A stretch of 64,000 nt of DNA, from the NCBI GenBank assembly GCA_963675665.1, contig OY776510.1, positions 2,336,001 through 2,400,000 of the forward strand, in the 5' to 3' direction. The stretch's first letter is position 1. The number at the start of each line of letters is the position of its first letter. Positions 11,957 to 28,245 of this stretch are shown here, one piece after another. This DNA comes from Spirochaetia bacterium. Lineage in GTDB: Bacteria; Spirochaetota; Spirochaetia; UBA9216. The position numbers and the translations under genes are program-made. The notes under the pieces are model-generated. The model was given only the letters and a program-made list of their open reading frames with translations. It searched no databases and was not told the origin of the DNA.

Positions 11957-12784
11957 CTATAGCTTCTGGCAGCTGCCACAAAAGTATACGCTTCCGCCCA
12001 TGTATGCTGCTTTTTCAATAGGGGTGCCGCAGGTGACGCACTTTGTGCCTGCTGTGTTTTTGCTCATTTTTGTCCGGTAACCGCCCGGTTTTCCAAACAG
12101 GTCTTTTTCCGTGTCGCGGCCTCCCTTCTCAATGATTTCACCCATTGTGGTGCGGATTGATTCATAAAGGTTCTTTACCTCGCCTTGCGACAGACTGTCC
12201 CATCTGCGTTTCGGATGAATGCGGGCATTATACAATATGTCCTGAAGCACGCCGTTTCCGAGACCCGGAATGCGCTGTTCGGTTGCAATAACGAATTTCA
12301 CGCTTTTATTTTTTAATTCGCTTCCGCCGGTTAAAGACAAGAAATACTCCGGGCTAAAATCCGGGCCCAGCAGATCGGGTTTGCTGACGGCCCCCCGGTA
12401 GTAATCATTATCATAATCATCCGTGTCCGCGCAAATTATTCCGCCGTACATCTGTATTGAGGCGCTGAGGTATGACTTATCTGTAAACCTGACCAGCAGC
12501 TGGTGTTTTTTCGGAATATTGGAATCATCCGGGTGACTCGCAAGTTTTACGCCGTCGCTGAAAACAAGCATTTTGTCCCGGACCTGAACCTGAATCATCC
12601 CTCCGCGGCGCAGCGCTCCTTCAATTCTTTTCCCCGCAAGCTGCTGATGGTATTTCTCGGGTTTCCCGTTGTACCAGGCGAATTTATTCGGCGAGAAAGC
12701 TGCCGTAACGTTTTCAATTTTTTTACCTGTCAATACACGATTGATCTGTTCGGCAATAACTGCCGCTTCCGGAAGTTCCAGCAT
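11957..12784 (-). CDS. Fpg/Nei (endonuclease VIII-like) DNA glycosylase family protein lacking catalytic Pro2
   Basis: MLELPE N-terminus, H2TH motif IPGLGNGVLQDILYNARIHP, C-terminal zinc finger CVTC...CGSCQ. Confidence 0.85.
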   Translation of the reverse strand: MLELPEAAVIAEQINRVLTGKKIENVTAAFSPNKFAWYNGKPEKYHQQLAGKRIEGALRRGGMIQVQVRDKMLVFSDGVKLASHPDDSNIPKKHQLLVRFTDKSYLSASIQMYGGIICADTDDYDNDYYRGAVSKPDLLGPDFSPEYFLSLTGGSELKNKSVKFVIATEQRIPGLGNGVLQDILYNARIHPKRRWDSLSQGEVKNLYESIRTTMGEIIEKGGRDTEKDLFGKPGGYRTKMSKNTAGTKCVTCGTPIEKAAYMGGSVYFCGSCQKL

Positions 12785-12936
12785 ATAAATACCCCCGTTT
12801 TCATTGTTGATTATACTATGAAAAGATTCCGGGCGATATATAAATTATGCTTTGCTGACCAGCAGCAGATATCCTGAAATCAGTGCAAATCGCTGCCCTG
12901 CGCATACCCGGTATTCATCCGTAGCTGTATGCACAG

Positions 12937-12975
12937 ATAAAAAATCCCCGCCCGATGAATGTTTATCGGGCGGGG
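12937..12975 (-). terminator. Rho-independent terminator of the candidate sRNA
   Basis: CCCCGCCCGAT-aaacattc-ATCGGGCGGGG-ATTTTTT on the minus strand. Confidence 0.85.
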
Positions 12976-13029
12976 TAAAAGGAGGTTATGAAAATTCAGC
13001 ATTACAGCACTTGTCCCTGTTGTAATGCC
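12937..13029 (-). ncRNA. Candidate trans-acting sRNA (5' hairpin, anti-SD seed, intrinsic terminator)
   Basis: Extended -10 TGgTATCCT at 13044-13036; 5' stem GCATTACA/TGTAATGC (13028-12999); linker UUUUCAUAACCUCCUUUU (12994-12977); perfect 11-bp stem 12975-12946 followed by U6. Confidence 0.65.
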
Positions 13030-13035
13030 GGTAAC

Positions 13036-13100
13036 AGGATACCAAAAAACTGAGGGGCGTTGGTTAAGGGCATGTAAACTGAATGTAAACAATGTAAAAA
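13036..13100 (-). promoter_or_regulatory. Putative OmpR/CpxR-type activator site plus -10 element (copy A)
   Basis: ttggttaagggcatgtaaactgaatgtaaacaatgtaaaaa (13060-13100) has four GT(A/T)AA repeats and matches 25651-25691 at 33/41. Confidence 0.7.
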
Positions 13101-13149
13101 AGAAATGCTGTTTTATCGATTCCCCGTGGTTAATACTGTCTTAAAATTC

Positions 13150-13175
13150 AAAAAGACCGCCCTGCCGGGCGGCCT
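13150..13175 (-). terminator. Rho-independent terminator of asd
   Basis: AGGCCGCCC-ggca-GGGCGGTCT-TTTT on the minus strand, about 40 nt after the asd stop. Confidence 0.75.
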
Positions 13176-13212
13176 GAAAAAATCGATATGTTTACTTGAA
13201 ATGAACGCTGCA

Positions 13213-14328
13213 TTACCCCAGATGCTCAAGCACAATCTTTATCATTCGTCTGACCGGTTCGGCGGCTCCCCAAAGCAGCTGATCTCCGACCGAAAAGGCT
13301 GTCAGGTATTCGTTACCCAGATTCATCTTGCGCACGCGGCCGACCGGAACGGTAAGGGTTCCGGTAACTGCAGCCGGAGTCAGCTCTGCCAAAGTGGCGG
13401 ATTTTTCGTTCGGAACGAATTTTACCCAGTCGTTATGAGAAGAGATGATATTCTGTATCTCATCAAGCGGAATATCTTTTTTCAGTTTAATTGTAAAAGC
13501 CTGGCTGTGACACCTCATTGAGCCTATTCTTACGCATTGCCCGTCTATCGGAATCGGCGAGTCTTCCCGGCCGAGTATCTTGTTTGTTTCCGAAATACCT
13601 TTCCATTCTTCTTTTGTCTGTCCGTTTTCCATTGGGGCGTCAATCCAGGGGATAAGGCTTGCGGCAAGCGGCGCTCCGAAGTTCTGGATCGGAAAAGTTT
13701 CATTGCGTAAGGTAGAAGTGATTGTCCGGTCAAGATCAAGTATAGCCGACGACAGGTTGTCCAGATCCGGCGAAGCGTTTCCTGTTATCTGCATTTGTTT
13801 AACCAGCTCGCGCATATTTTTTGCGCCGGCGCCCGATGCCGCCTGGTATGTCATTGACGTTAGCCATTCTACAAGATCTTTTTCAAAAAGTCCGCCGAGC
13901 GCCATAAGCATAAGCGATACTGTGCAGTTCCCGCCGATATAGTCTTTTATACCCGAAACAAGTCCGTTATCGATTACAGATTTGTTTACAGGATCAAGCA
14001 CTATTATACTGTCCTTGTTCATTCTGAGTGTTGAGGCAGCATCAATCCAGTAGCCTTCCCAACCGGCGGCTCTGAGTTCAGGATGCACCTTTGTAGTGTA
14101 AGAACCGCCCTGACATGTCACAATTACATCCATTGTCGACAGACTTTTAATGTCGTAAGCGTCTGCCAGAGGGGGCGTTGCAACGCCGATATCCGGCCCT
14201 TTCTGTCCGGCTTGTGAAGTCGAGAAGAAAAGCGGTTCAAAGCCGTTAAAGTCCTTTTCAGAAAGCATTCTTTCCATCAGAACCGAGCCGACCATGCCTC
14301 TCCATCCGATGAACCCTACTTTAACCAT
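13213..14328 (-). CDS. asd: Aspartate-semialdehyde dehydrogenase (E. coli-like type)
   Basis: [22 protein letters not shown], catalytic [30 protein letters not shown]. Confidence 0.97.
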
Positions 14329-25589: not shown

Positions 25590-25626
25590 AAAAATCCTCG
25601 ATTCTTTCTTTTGCTTTACGATGACA

Positions 25627-25691
25627 AATATACTTCGACGGACAGACGGTTTGGTTAAGGGAATGTAACTGTTTTGTAAACTATGTAAAAA
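25627..25691 (-). promoter_or_regulatory. Putative OmpR/CpxR-type activator site plus -10 element of the efflux operon (copy B)
   Basis: ttggttaagggaatgtaactgttttgtaaactatgtaaaaa (25651-25691); -10 TATATT at 25632-25627, same offset as copy A. Confidence 0.7.
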
Positions 25692-25751
25692 GCGGAACCG
25701 TGAAAAAGAAGTTTTATAGCGAAAAAGTTGCAGAAAGGTTATTATAGTAGA

Positions 25752-27515
25752 ATGAAACATGAGAGAGTGCTTTCAAGAGCGTTTAACAGTCTTGTAGCGG
25801 TAATAGTTGCCTCAGTCTTGTCAATTGCAATATTTTTTGTGTATAAGACATATGAAAAAAGTGTCGAGACCGATATATTCAGGTATTCGCACAAACTTGA
25901 AGATTCGATAAGACGCATCGCAGCAGCAGAGTACCGAAGATATTTTCTGCTTGTCGATTTTGCAAAAACGGCCGGCACCAAGAACTCCGGAAATTCTATC
26001 GAGAAGATCCTTGAAGAGAAATCAACTATTCTGGGGAAGAACGGAGAGATTCCAAATCTTGTATCAAGTATAGGATATTATGACTCCTCTTCTCCTGAAT
26101 CTGCTTTGGAATATGATTTTGAATACCGTGAATGGTCGGAGCTGGATAATATTTTCAACAATGACGAACCTGATCGCAAGTCCGACTTTTTTTATGTCCG
26201 CTCCGGTTCCGCCCCGGAAAAATTGTACCTTGCGGTTGATAACGGCAGCACAGGCCGGGTGATTTTTTTCAGAGTGGATCCCCAGGGGTTTCTGGATAAT
26301 TATATCAGGGAAGTTGTGGAGAGTTCCAATGAAGAATTCAGGGTTGACTGGCTTAGAGGTTCCGATCCGGAATCACGCAGGATACTGGAAGATTATTTCG
26401 AATATGAATTGCTTCAATATCATTTCCGTCCGATGCAAATCCTTCTGAAAACCGGAAGTCAAAACCAGCCTTTGATAGTCGAAATTCCGATAATGTTCGA
26501 CATCAGACGTGTTTTTGATAACGGAAGTGCAGAACAGAAAGATGTAAATGATTTAAAACCGGGAAAGCCGATGTTTTTTGATTTCAGTTATTTCGTAAGG
26601 ATGATGCATAAAGATGGTTCCTACTATTATGAGATTGAACACGATGCGGCCGTAAGTTTTTTCGAAACAATCATAATCTTCATTACGATTGGAATACTTT
26701 TCATACTGCTGCTGTTCCAGCTTCAGAGGACCAGGCTTTTAAGAAGCAAGGAAAAGGAATTTGTTGCTTCAGTTACGCATGAGCTCAGAACTCCGTTGAC
26801 CGTCATTCGTTCTGCTGCTGATAACCTTTCAAACGGGATTGTGAACAAGGATAAATTGCCGGTTTACGGCGGGCTGATTATTGAGCAGTCGGAACGTCTG
26901 GGAAACATGATCGAAGAAATTCTGCTCTATTCAAATTTTGAGAATAAAAACAGTAATTCCGGAAAACCGGTGAAGTTCGATTTTAAGGAGGTTGTTTCAC
27001 AGTTTAAACCGGCTCTGGATGAGCTGGGTAATGCCGAAGGACTGAAACTTCACTGGGATATAAACGGACTGCCCGGAAAAGCCGAGAGTTTTCCTGATGT
27101 TATTACGCTTACTGTGAATAATCTTGTATCCAACGCTGTTAATCATGCTTATTCTGTTCCCGGCGGTGAAATCCGGATAATTATAAGATATCTGGTTCCG
27201 GGAAGATTGAGCATAACGGTTGAGGACGACGGACGGGGAATTGATCCGCGTGAGCTTAAGCATGTTTTTGAGCCTTTTTACAGAGACTATGTGAGCCGGA
27301 GCCGGCAGGAGAGGGGCAGCGGTCTGGGACTGTTTATTGCGCGGCGCAAAGCTGCTTTATGCGGAGGCAAGCTGACCGTCGAAAGCCCTTACAGAAGAAT
27401 CGACGGGAGCAAACTGTCAGGATGCAGGTTTGTATTGACGCTTCCCTGTACAGAGGCTGACGACTCCGCTAATATAAAACAAAAAACCTTAAAGGAGCCT
27501 GAAAATGGCCGCTGA
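25752..27515 (+). CDS. Sensor histidine kinase (2 TM, periplasmic sensor, HisKA and HATPase)
   Basis: FVASVTHELRTPL H-box, NLVSNA, VEDDGRGI, GSGLGL. Confidence 0.95.
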   Translation: MKHERVLSRAFNSLVAVIVASVLSIAIFFVYKTYEKSVETDIFRYSHKLEDSIRRIAAAEYRRYFLLVDFAKTAGTKNSGNSIEKILEEKSTILGKNGEIPNLVSSIGYYDSSSPESALEYDFEYREWSELDNIFNNDEPDRKSDFFYVRSGSAPEKLYLAVDNGSTGRVIFFRVDPQGFLDNYIREVVESSNEEFRVDWLRGSDPESRRILEDYFEYELLQYHFRPMQILLKTGSQNQPLIVEIPIMFDIRRVFDNGSAEQKDVNDLKPGKPMFFDFSYFVRMMHKDGSYYYEIEHDAAVSFFETIIIFITIGILFILLLFQLQRTRLLRSKEKEFVASVTHELRTPLTVIRSAADNLSNGIVNKDKLPVYGGLIIEQSERLGNMIEEILLYSNFENKNSNSGKPVKFDFKEVVSQFKPALDELGNAEGLKLHWDINGLPGKAESFPDVITLTVNNLVSNAVNHAYSVPGGEIRIIIRYLVPGRLSITVEDDGRGIDPRELKHVFEPFYRDYVSRSRQERGSGLGLFIARRKAALCGGKLTVESPYRRIDGSKLSGCRFVLTLPCTEADDSANIKQKTLKEPENGR

Positions 27516-28245
27516 AAAGAAACGAATACTGATAATTGAAGATGAACCCGGAGTTCAGATTACACTTGAGGACAGATTATCATCCGAAGGATACGAAGTT
27601 TCTGTCTGCGGCGACGGTATTGAAGGCGAAAAAGAAGCAAAAGCCGGCCGCCATGATCTGATACTGCTTGATGTGATGTTGCCGGGAAAGGACGGTTTTA
27701 CAATTTGCCAGGATCTTCGGAAGGCCGGGGAGGAAACTCCGATACTGATGCTGACCGCCCGCGATACCAGCATAGATACAATAATGGGGCTTCGTGTGGG
27801 TGCCGACGATTATCTGGCAAAACCGTTCGACATGCAGGTACTGCTGGCGCGGATTGAAGCGTTGTTGAGGAGAGCGGGCCGGCCCAATCCTGCAGCAACG
27901 CCGGAAAGCGGCTCTGTACGGGAAGGTTCTGGCGGGGACAATGATATCATCATTTTCGGCGGGTTTACTCTTGACCGCGGGAAGGGCCTTTTGGAGAACG
28001 ACGGGGCTGCTGTTGAACTGAATGCCCAGGAATATAAACTTCTTGAGTATCTTGCTGTCCACAGCGGGCGGATAATAAGCCGGAACGCCATTCTTGATGA
28101 TGTCTGGGGATATGAGAGTGAGGTAACGACCCGAACGGTAGATGTCCATGTCGCAAAACTCAGGCAGCGGTTGGGCGAATCGGAACGGCCTAAACATATT
28201 CAGACTTACAGAGGCAGGGGATATAAATTTGTTCTGAATGCGTGA
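27505..28245 (+). CDS. OmpR-family response regulator
   Basis: IIEDE, LLDVMLPGKDG, GADDYLAKPF, winged helix RTVDVHVAKLRQRL...TYRGRGYKF. Confidence 0.96.
   Translation: MAAEKKRILIIEDEPGVQITLEDRLSSEGYEVSVCGDGIEGEKEAKAGRHDLILLDVMLPGKDGFTICQDLRKAGEETPILMLTARDTSIDTIMGLRVGADDYLAKPFDMQVLLARIEALLRRAGRPNPAATPESGSVREGSGGDNDIIIFGGFTLDRGKGLLENDGAAVELNAQEYKLLEYLAVHSGRIISRNAILDDVWGYESEVTTRTVDVHVAKLRQRLGESERPKHIQTYRGRGYKFVLNA

Follow-up and report, generated by a model that had tools for sequence, protein, structure and literature searches.

A candidate small RNA gene of a marine spirochaete, with a promoter of putative two-component type and complementarity to the translation start of an Msp-like porin mRNA

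The region considered here lies between the asd gene and an Fpg-like gene of Spirochaetia bacterium, within a stretch of 64,000 nucleotides (assembly GCA_963675665.1, contig OY776510.1, positions 2,336,001 to 2,400,000 of the forward strand) that will be referred to as the window. These two genes are spaced by 428 bp, and within this spacer, on the minus strand, lies the predicted small RNA (sRNA) that is the subject of this work and that had been proposed by an earlier note on the same DNA. In the following, G000 indicates the window's own genome, a single contig of 5.15 Mb, G003 is a congener, and G001, G004, G005, G008, G009 and G010 are relatives. Counting from the first letter of the window, the features of the locus are:

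13213-14328, minus strand: asd, with Semialdhyde_dh domains
13154-13175, minus strand: the terminator of asd itself, which separates asd from the sRNA promoter
13098-13093, 13089-13084 and 13078-13073 (TTTACA) and 13067-13062 (TTAACC), minus strand: four direct-repeat boxes, recognized in a gapless alignment of eight promoters
13036-13044, minus strand: -10 element TATCCT (hexamer 13041-13036) after TGg, placed by the fixed promoter geometry
12938-13029, minus strand: predicted sRNA transcript of about 92 nt, delimited by promoter geometry, terminator, fold and the covariance models R2 and R3
12998-13029, minus strand: 5′ stem-loop by fold prediction, a 9-bp helix (one G-U) with a 2-bp extension and an 8-nt apical loop
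13005-13016, minus strand: invariant block GGACAAGUGCUG, comprising the loop and the start of the 3′ arm, identical in three of three homologues
12976-12997, minus strand: linker GAAUUUUCAUAACCUCCUUUUA, unpaired in the minimum-energy fold
12939-12975, minus strand: intrinsic terminator, with an 11-bp stem at 12975-12946, then A, then U6 at 12944-12939
12988-13053, plus strand: open reading frame (ORF) of 21 codons, MKIQHYSTCPCCNAGNRIPKN, judged a by-product of the seed
11957-12784, minus strand: Fpg-like gene, with H2TH and Fapy domains

The extended -10 that the earlier note had read on the minus strand, TGgTATCCT, is present at 13044-13036. The predicted transcript would start at 13029 +/- 2, about 7 nt past the TATCCT hexamer, and would end inside the U-tract, near 12938; promoter, terminator and fold therefore agree with the sRNA gene of about 90 nt that had been proposed. 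The 5′ stem, described at first as 8 bp long, does form a hairpin, but its helix is of 9 bp and carries a further extension of 2 bp. The 11-bp terminator stem (9 of the 11 pairs are G-C, with a loop of 8) is followed by U6 as claimed, with one A in between. The linker, whose core is UUUUCAUAACCUCCUUUU, is single-stranded between these two hairpins in the minimum-energy fold and contains UUUUCAU at 12994-12988 and CCUCC at 12985-12981 on the minus strand, that is, the complement of a Shine-Dalgarno (SD) sequence plus AUG-AAA recognized by the earlier note. The whole RNA has a predicted folding energy of -40.2 kcal/mol (z -4.54), a stability equalled by 0 of 200 shuffled sequences. The 18-nt complement of the linker, AAAAGGAGGTTATGAAAA, occurs just once in the 5.15-Mb genome, at this very locus, and no paralogues in G000 were found either of the locus, by blastn-short, or of the ORF peptide, by tblastn. 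Among contigs from four DNA runs, X1, which may be the source sample itself, and X3 are identical to the window; a second sample of the same organism thus has the same sequence here.

The promoter of this RNA proves to be one member of a recurrent module. A scan of positions 12500-13500 returned no sigma-70-like site, and the module has no TTGACA-like -35 element. By BLASTN, the comparison of the intergenic region with 40 relatives matched two short motifs only, none of them in the sRNA part; one is a triple TGTAAA repeat at 13060-13100, which is found also at window positions 25651-25691 and in G001 and G010. Simple regular-expression scans for the repeat were too noisy and were replaced by an nhmmer profile built from five instances, which detects six sites in G000. 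At the sites 1254865, 4192703 and 109768, one side of the repeat holds nothing but the end of a convergent gene, so that the regulated strand must be the other one, corresponding to the minus strand in the window. Over 80 columns, eight promoters can be aligned with no gap and show TTTACA repeated three times, then TTAACC and then TAT..T; TTAC in the first three boxes, T.A in the fourth and the -10 TAT..T are invariant (8/8). Specifically, the boxes begin at alignment columns 10, 19, 30 and 41, with a period of 9-11 bp, and the TATCCT hexamer sits 30 nt past box 3 and 20 nt past box 4; an identical -10 hexamer characterizes a promoter of G001 (L004). A profile built without the window site finds this site with E = 1.5e-7, among six matches at E <= 1 in G000, and the sequence-only promoter model R1 gives 35 matches in 9 of the 11 family genomes. 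The weak extended -10 pointed out by the earlier note occupies a fixed position of a shared promoter architecture.

The genes located behind the module in G000 include that of an OmpR/PhoB-type response regulator (with a histidine kinase on the divergent side), a TolC-like OEP and HlyD pair, and Fer4/FMN_bind membrane proteins. Moreover, the window itself contains another instance:

25619-25698, minus strand: second copy of the promoter module, serving a MacAB-like operon (25589-20901)

This efflux operon codes for HlyD, an ABC ATPase and two MacB_PCD/FtsX permeases; its divergently oriented neighbours are a HisKA histidine kinase (25752-27515) and an OmpR-type regulator (27505-28245). The operon is separated from the sRNA by 12.6 kb, and a similar spacing of 9.8 kb is observed in G003. 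Two genes with Response_reg and Trans_reg_C domains adjoin modules, one directly behind (L012:2647-3351; G000 1690146-1690850) and one beside (window 27505-28245). Instead of a -35 element, promoters served by regulators of the OmpR/PhoB family carry direct repeats that follow the helical turn. On the basis of box architecture and gene adjacency, the four boxes can be assigned as the putative binding site of an OmpR/PhoB-type response regulator. Given that MacAB/TolC-type efflux operons and a regulator gene lie behind the same module, the RNA would belong to an efflux or envelope-stress regulon.

Some further four-box promoters have uncommon downstream regions. At G000:C1:109737-109810 (L014/L043) no gene is evident in the ~400 nt behind the promoter, and the first ORF after that on the same strand is an ECF sigma factor. 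In G009, a leader hairpin and a U-run separate two four-box promoters (L022 and L027) from the gene behind (N-terminus MSSLPNEKGS...) and may be attenuators; one of these leader hairpins contains CCCCUCC.

The promoter also led to the homologous RNAs of G003, which had been missed by BLASTN against the 40 relatives and were recovered by the promoter search. Behind the 27 promoter matches that nhmmer re-found in 30 loci, a homologous RNA is present in one case (L034, G003). This first G003 copy has the same hairpin, an identical GGACAAGUGCUG, UUUUCAU, CUCC, a terminator and the same predicted fold; as in G000, it is located directly downstream of the asd ortholog, and a convergent gene follows. 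R2, a covariance model derived from the window sequence alone, retrieves it with E = 5e-6, together with a second G003 copy (E = 5e-5). The latter is placed on another contig, with a four-box promoter ahead, a weaker U-tract, and a same-strand ORF (175 aa, no Pfam family) starting 36 nt downstream. When the three homologues are aligned, 94.8% of the pair cells are paired, versus at most 44.6% with slid partners; the 10 pairs of the 5′ stem are 90% paired and the 11 pairs of the terminator 100%. Both sides change in six pairs (one in the 5′ stem, U-A to A-U, and five in the terminator), a covariation which, with n = 3 and an alignment fitted to the model, is supportive rather than strong. The four-box promoter precedes 3/3 homologues. 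UUUUCAU and CUCC are likewise kept in 3/3, the distance from CAU to the CUCC/CCUCC block varying from 2 to 6 nt. Hence the stems and seed elements anticipated by the earlier note are conserved, with compensatory changes, in the two G003 homologues. It had taken the linker as seed; the most conserved part is the hairpin loop GGACAAGUGCUG and not the linker, and this block would be the primary seed.

The three-sequence model R3 revealed no further convincing match beyond G000 and G003 in 11 genomes of the family and order, and in a class-level search of 151 genomes the convincing matches were again those of G000 and G003 only. Within the genus, the element is found downstream of asd in two of six genomes. 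A loop-plus-seed pattern scan of two large public collections yielded 22 genome and 21 metagenome loci, of which only L074 and L080 pass both R3 and R1; their bit scores equal those found for G003, and neither counts as a further independent genome. Among the weak matches of R2 and R3, L048, L049, L050, L053, L054 and L056 were found on inspection to be without promoter and seed, and L057 and L058 (E about 0.005-0.007) were set aside.

The genomic surroundings of the three copies bear on a different explanation, that is, a cis-acting leader or attenuator in which the stress promoter would drive the Fpg-like gene and the terminator would act as a regulated stop. The Fpg-like gene does lie 150 nt downstream on the same strand, and the second G003 copy, with its weaker U-tract, has the same-strand ORF mentioned above at 36 nt. 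However, the first G003 copy faces a convergent gene, and the three copies are followed by genes that have no relation to one another. In G001, asd is followed by the Fpg-like gene over a spacer of about 125 bp that contains no such RNA; in addition, a TATAAT can be seen by eye about 30 nt ahead of the Fpg-like start, and the predicted folds offer no antiterminator alternative. A regulated leader is thus highly improbable, and an independent sRNA gene remains the preferred interpretation.

The opposite strand of the locus offers yet another candidate product. Here AAGGAGG, TT and ATG are followed by the open frame of 21 codons, and each of the three homologues has an ATGAAAA start; it could be imagined that the frame codes for a small Cys-rich peptide or for a type I toxin, with the minus-strand RNA as its antisense. 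A functional product of this ORF is among the outcomes that, according to the earlier note, would speak against an sRNA. Yet the peptides of the three homologues, of 21, 15 and 20 aa, have only Met-Lys in common, and the invariant nucleotides CAGCACTTGTCC begin 17, 21 and 22 nt past the ATG, hence in all three frames, which argues that the ORF is not coding. The spacer between GGAGG and ATG measures 2 nt, a distance found in 12 of 799 GGAGG-bearing starts with a mode of 5-6 nt in crude gene calls, a figure that is only approximate because the start-picking rule disfavoured spacers shorter than 3; the length of 21 codons is about that expected by chance in random sequence. No promoter-like or terminator-like site was found on the plus strand at the locus, the peptide has no match in Pfam, and the search for paralogues was negative, as said above. 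Nor does the window peptide resemble a type I toxin, being polar and Cys-rich instead of hydrophobic, and not conserved. A functional peptide of either kind is therefore extremely unlikely, and the plus-strand ORF appears as a shadow of the RNA's seed, not as a gene.

As to known RNA families, a cmscan of Rfam 15 over window positions 12600-13400 (both strands, E <= 10) produced eight matches, all far under the gathering thresholds, and none to MicF, MicC or MicA; no Rfam family, OmrA/B and LhrC included, reached its threshold. The best one, RF02837 anti-hemB, scores 20.5 bits versus a gathering score of 49.5, and its alignment is carried by the G+C-rich terminator and the U-tail; both RNAs consist of two hairpins plus terminator. 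The earlier remark that this RNA is not of a described family is in agreement with a search that gave no match at threshold.

The search for target mRNAs was performed on 4426 translation start regions of G000, with gene starts taken from crude ORF calls. The 16S rRNA of G000 ends in GGAUCACCUCCUUUCU, with which the linker shares the 9 nt ACCUCCUUU. A linker of this kind, unpaired and with UUUUCAU and CUCC retained in 3/3 homologues, could point to a global repressor whose anti-SD and anti-AUG stretch would by itself titrate numerous exported-protein mRNAs, none of them preferred. Nevertheless, linker duplexes at or below -14 kcal/mol are predicted for 569 of the 4426 starts, versus 60-554 for 20 shuffles and 389-554 for three shuffles that keep CCUC; in terms of energy, then, the linker alone behaves as any anti-SD sequence. 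Among the top 200 predicted linker targets, 62 are signal-peptide-like (37-43 with the CCUC-keeping controls; background 19%). This excess is built in by UUUUCAU, which is anti-AUGAAAA, and is not independent evidence. In other words, the repression of many exported proteins foreseen by the earlier note finds a moderate signal-peptide excess in the predictions, with a linker no better than CCUC-keeping shuffles, and the six in-window targets it had put forward do not stand out, with linker ranks of 166, 834, 878, 1225, 1756 and 3127 of 4426. Contiguous 11-mer matches to the linker likewise gave no standout gene start. The genes of the promoter regulon were tried as linker targets and rejected (regulator, rank 1111; HlyD, 502; OEP, 1199; Fer4, 244). 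Against a global repressor stand also the invariance of the loop rather than the linker, and the distance of 2-6 nt between CAU and CUCC/CCUCC, to be compared with the 5-6 nt peak between GGAGG and start in the genes. On the whole, we regard a repressor acting through the linker alone as unlikely.

Since it is the loop that is invariant, and not the linker, its complement was sought near gene starts. The 11-mer AGCACTTGTCC has three occurrences in G000: one antisense to the sRNA, one within a second sRNA-like unit and one over codons 4-7 of a 607-aa secreted protein (G000 859447), discussed below as a porin. Four occurrences were found in G003, that is, the two sRNA genes, one coding region and, again, codons 4-7 of a secreted protein, this time of 426 aa. 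The first 54-60 nt of each RNA were then compared by RNAduplex with the start regions, taken from -35 to +45. For the G000 RNA, the start region of the porin ranks 2 of 4426 (-42.2 kcal/mol, z -4.4; none of 500 shuffles is as good), and for the two G003 RNAs the same G000 region ranks first of 4426 in both cases, with -53.3 and -49.9 kcal/mol (z -6.2 and -4.8). Paired with the start region of the ortholog in their own genome, the G003 RNAs reach -58.3 and -56.4 kcal/mol, with helices of 20-21 bp. The predicted pairing comprises three blocks: CCUCC with GGAGG, the U-rich/CAU element with the AUG region, and the 5′ arm plus loop with codons 3-9. The arm-plus-loop helix is of 16-21 bp (16 bp for the G000 RNA), and in the G000 duplex UUUUCAU is paired with a nearby GUGAA instead of the AUGAAAA start. 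All three blocks fall within the ribosome footprint on the mRNA. The best-supported predicted target would consequently be the mRNA of an Msp-like porin encoded outside the window, contacted by loop, 5′ arm and linker.

The 5′ region of the porin gene is itself conserved to an unusual degree in comparison with the protein. Its 5′ untranslated region and first ~12 codons are nearly identical between G000 and G003, and promoter, 5′-untranslated hairpin, SD and signal-peptide codons show 83-93% DNA identity (local pieces up to 95%) across two genera. This conservation extends to at least 6 of the 11 family genomes (L108, L115-L119: G000, G003, G001, G004, G008 and G010). The mature porins are 23-28% identical or cannot be aligned (G000 vs G003, BLASTP E = 0.49), and a protein search with the G000 porin in five congeners gave a match only in G005; the orthology between the G000 and G003 porins is thus based on the conserved 5′ DNA and on a fold lead. 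A conserved 5′ region with a divergent mature protein is typical of a surface protein that is strongly expressed and evolves fast. Concerning its identity, Pfam assigned no family to the G000 porin, and the NCBIfam model msp_porin gave an N-terminal, sub-threshold match (E = 3.4e-8, 32.9 bits vs a cut-off of 200). In the ESM Atlas, the nearest neighbour of the model of the G003 protein is a cluster named 'major outer sheath protein Msp' (TM 0.72), in which MOSP_N and MOSP_C occur in 100% of the members; porins make up the remaining neighbours, and Msp and porin clusters of Spirochaetota reach feature scores of 0.96-0.97. An AlphaFold2 prediction of the G003 porin from a 6-row alignment had a mean pLDDT of 29.2 and was not usable. 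A lead from one source and a weak profile match would therefore suggest, and do not prove, an Msp-like outer-membrane porin.

The plus strand of the element, with GGAGG..ATGAAAA..AGCACTTGTCC, resembles the start of the porin gene, and it can be asked whether the element is nothing but an evolutionary relic, i.e., the inverted and decayed 5′ end of an msp-like gene, left without function beside terminators. The signal-peptide-like character of the plus-strand ORFs of the G003 copies and the patchy presence in the genus go in this direction. What a relic does not account for is the four-box promoter, at exact spacing, and the terminator, on the opposite strand, in 3/3 copies, one of them at an unrelated locus, nor a hairpin kept by compensatory change. 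In addition, the block spacings differ from those of the porin gene (2 vs 13 nt and 18 vs 12 nt), which means that the element is not a simple copy. A functionless relic is accordingly quite improbable; an inverted duplication is rather the likely origin of the element than a rival to its function.

The second sRNA-like unit that contains the 11-mer lies at G000:C1:1693110-1693205 (+) (L136/L131), with a G003 counterpart (L137:1460-1550), and in both species it is found about 3 kb downstream of the promoter of the OmpR-type regulator. It is formed by a hairpin, the stretch UUUCCUCC, which is single-stranded, and a U6-tailed terminator (fold z -5.2); TTTACA boxes were not observed. The terminator loop of the G000 copy includes ACAGGACAAGUGCUG, equal to the seed of the window RNA, and the G003 copy differs there at two positions. 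Another locus, L055 (G000:C1:5124305-5124405, minus strand), is a weak R3 match (E = 0.02) just after a 34-codon ORF and has no four-box promoter; its loop AAGGACAAGUGC is a perfect 12-nt complement of the porin mRNA, and the next hairpin carries CCCCUCC in its loop. A further observation regards the asd to Fpg-like spacer itself, where a second motif, ATCNGTGCAAATC.CTGCCCTGCGCATACC...ATCCGT, occupies window positions 12878-12925, between the sRNA terminator and the Fpg-like gene. It recurs in G008 (L002, L005) and G010 (L003), where strong TTGACA/TATAAT promoters follow 20-55 nt downstream; behind two of these promoters lies a 29-codon ORF plus terminator, and behind one a gene with an N-terminus that is ArsR-like by eye. 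The window copy of this motif has no Rfam match.

Taken as a whole, we consider it probable that the locus encodes, as a gene in its own right, a trans-acting, base-pairing sRNA of about 92 nt, which would be controlled by a two-component system and would block translation of the Msp-like porin. Computation provides the anatomy, the shared promoter architecture, covarying homologues, the lack of a conserved ORF and a top-ranked complementarity; to these, the proposed mechanism would add transcription of the RNA, a regulator, a physiological signal, and repression as the direction of the effect. Specifically, the OmpR/PhoB-type regulator of an efflux-inducing two-component system would activate the four-box promoter, and the RNA would terminate at the strong intrinsic terminator. 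The 5′ half of the RNA is an imperfect antisense copy of the porin translation start region, and contact with the porin mRNA probably starts at the exposed apical loop. With CCUCC on the SD GGAGG, UUUUCAU on AUGAAAA, and loop plus 5′ arm on codons 3-9, the duplex would spread across SD and AUG, fill the 30S binding window and block initiation. An active sensor system would in this way result in less porin synthesis. That is, by combining efflux induction and porin block, the cell is proposed to raise efflux while lowering influx. Moreover, the 16S-tail-like ACCUCCUUU may weakly repress other mRNAs with a strong SD and a Met-Lys start.

Several points weigh against this reconstruction. An unrelated start region is marginally ahead of the porin for the G000 RNA (rank 1, -42.4 kcal/mol), RNAduplex disregards intramolecular structure while part of the seed is held in the 5′ stem, and the crude ORF calls affect the gene starts used throughout. 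The porin start region is conserved also where the sRNA was not found; with the former in at least 6 of 11 genomes and the latter in two, the circuit would not be needed wherever the porin gene exists. The family counts three copies in 2 of the 11 family genomes, the element was not found in the four other congeners (two of them 96% complete), and the covariation count comes from three sequences in an alignment that the model itself has fitted. In the contigs X4/X6 of a close relative, similarity ends at 12795 and 13222, both at the ends of the flanking genes, with no bridging contig. The regulator has been assigned solely through box architecture and gene adjacency. Finally, Hfq (PF17209) was not found in G000, so that the RNA may work on its own or together with a different protein.

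A wider hypothesis, which we hold as speculative and rather doubtful, is that of an independently arisen MicF-like circuit in free-living spirochaetes. It would be composed of an OmpR-type sensor and of sibling sRNAs derived from an inverted duplication of the porin 5′ end, with an Hfq-free kissing loop and a 16S-tail mimic that would shut off the porin and dampen other exported proteins. In such a circuit, the conserved 5′ region of the porin would serve as a shared landing pad for several RNAs, including the second CCUCC unit.

To our knowledge, post-transcriptional control in spirochaetes has been little explored outside Borrelia and Leptospira, and a literature search on the major outer sheath protein and sRNA in Treponema returned nothing relevant. 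The closest parallel is found elsewhere, with micF, which is itself under OmpR control. The ompF, ompC and ompA transcripts are reported to be regulated by micF, micC and micA (PMC1489923). The RNA described here, like MicF (with MicC and MicA), would be a trans-encoded RNA of about 90 nt with an intrinsic terminator, has extended, imperfect complementarity to SD, AUG and early codons of a major porin mRNA, and would share the OmpR-family direct-repeat type of promoter and a regulon with efflux functions. It differs in having no similarity to MicF in sequence or structure, a spirochaete host without detectable Hfq, three separate pairing blocks that include the apical loop, and a predicted target that is an Msp-like and not an OmpF-type porin.

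A second parallel concerns LhrC, whose UCCC motifs pair with target mRNAs. The LhrC sibling sRNAs of Listeria are under the LisRK two-component system (PMC4132741). Common traits are the OmpR-family, envelope-stress two-component control (here putative), the multicopy siblings (two in G003) and the C-rich loop or single-strand motifs directed to the SD region of surface-protein mRNAs; the sequence is unrelated, a long helix into the coding region is added, and the family was found in only two species. With NfeR1 and NtrBC, where an anti-SD sRNA is tied to a two-component system (PMC10746234), and with the reviewed circuits of two-component systems and sRNAs (PMC9262595), the likeness is that a two-component system would drive an sRNA and that an anti-SD stretch is used, in a different phylum and with another fold, regulator and target class. 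The locus is therefore best described as belonging to a candidate sRNA family that is new in itself but of a known type, comparable to MicF and LhrC; to date its members come from two species within a single genus of marine spirochaetes.

From a practical point of view, an sRNA missed by BLAST could be recovered via its promoter, and the promoter model R1 and the RNA model R3 can be used for the annotation of related genomes. If the proposed reading is true, this phylum would possess a complete circuit, made up of sensor, promoter boxes, sRNA and porin mRNA, that ties the induction of efflux to lower porin synthesis. It would represent convergent evolution of the MicF/OmpF logic in an organism where no Hfq was found.

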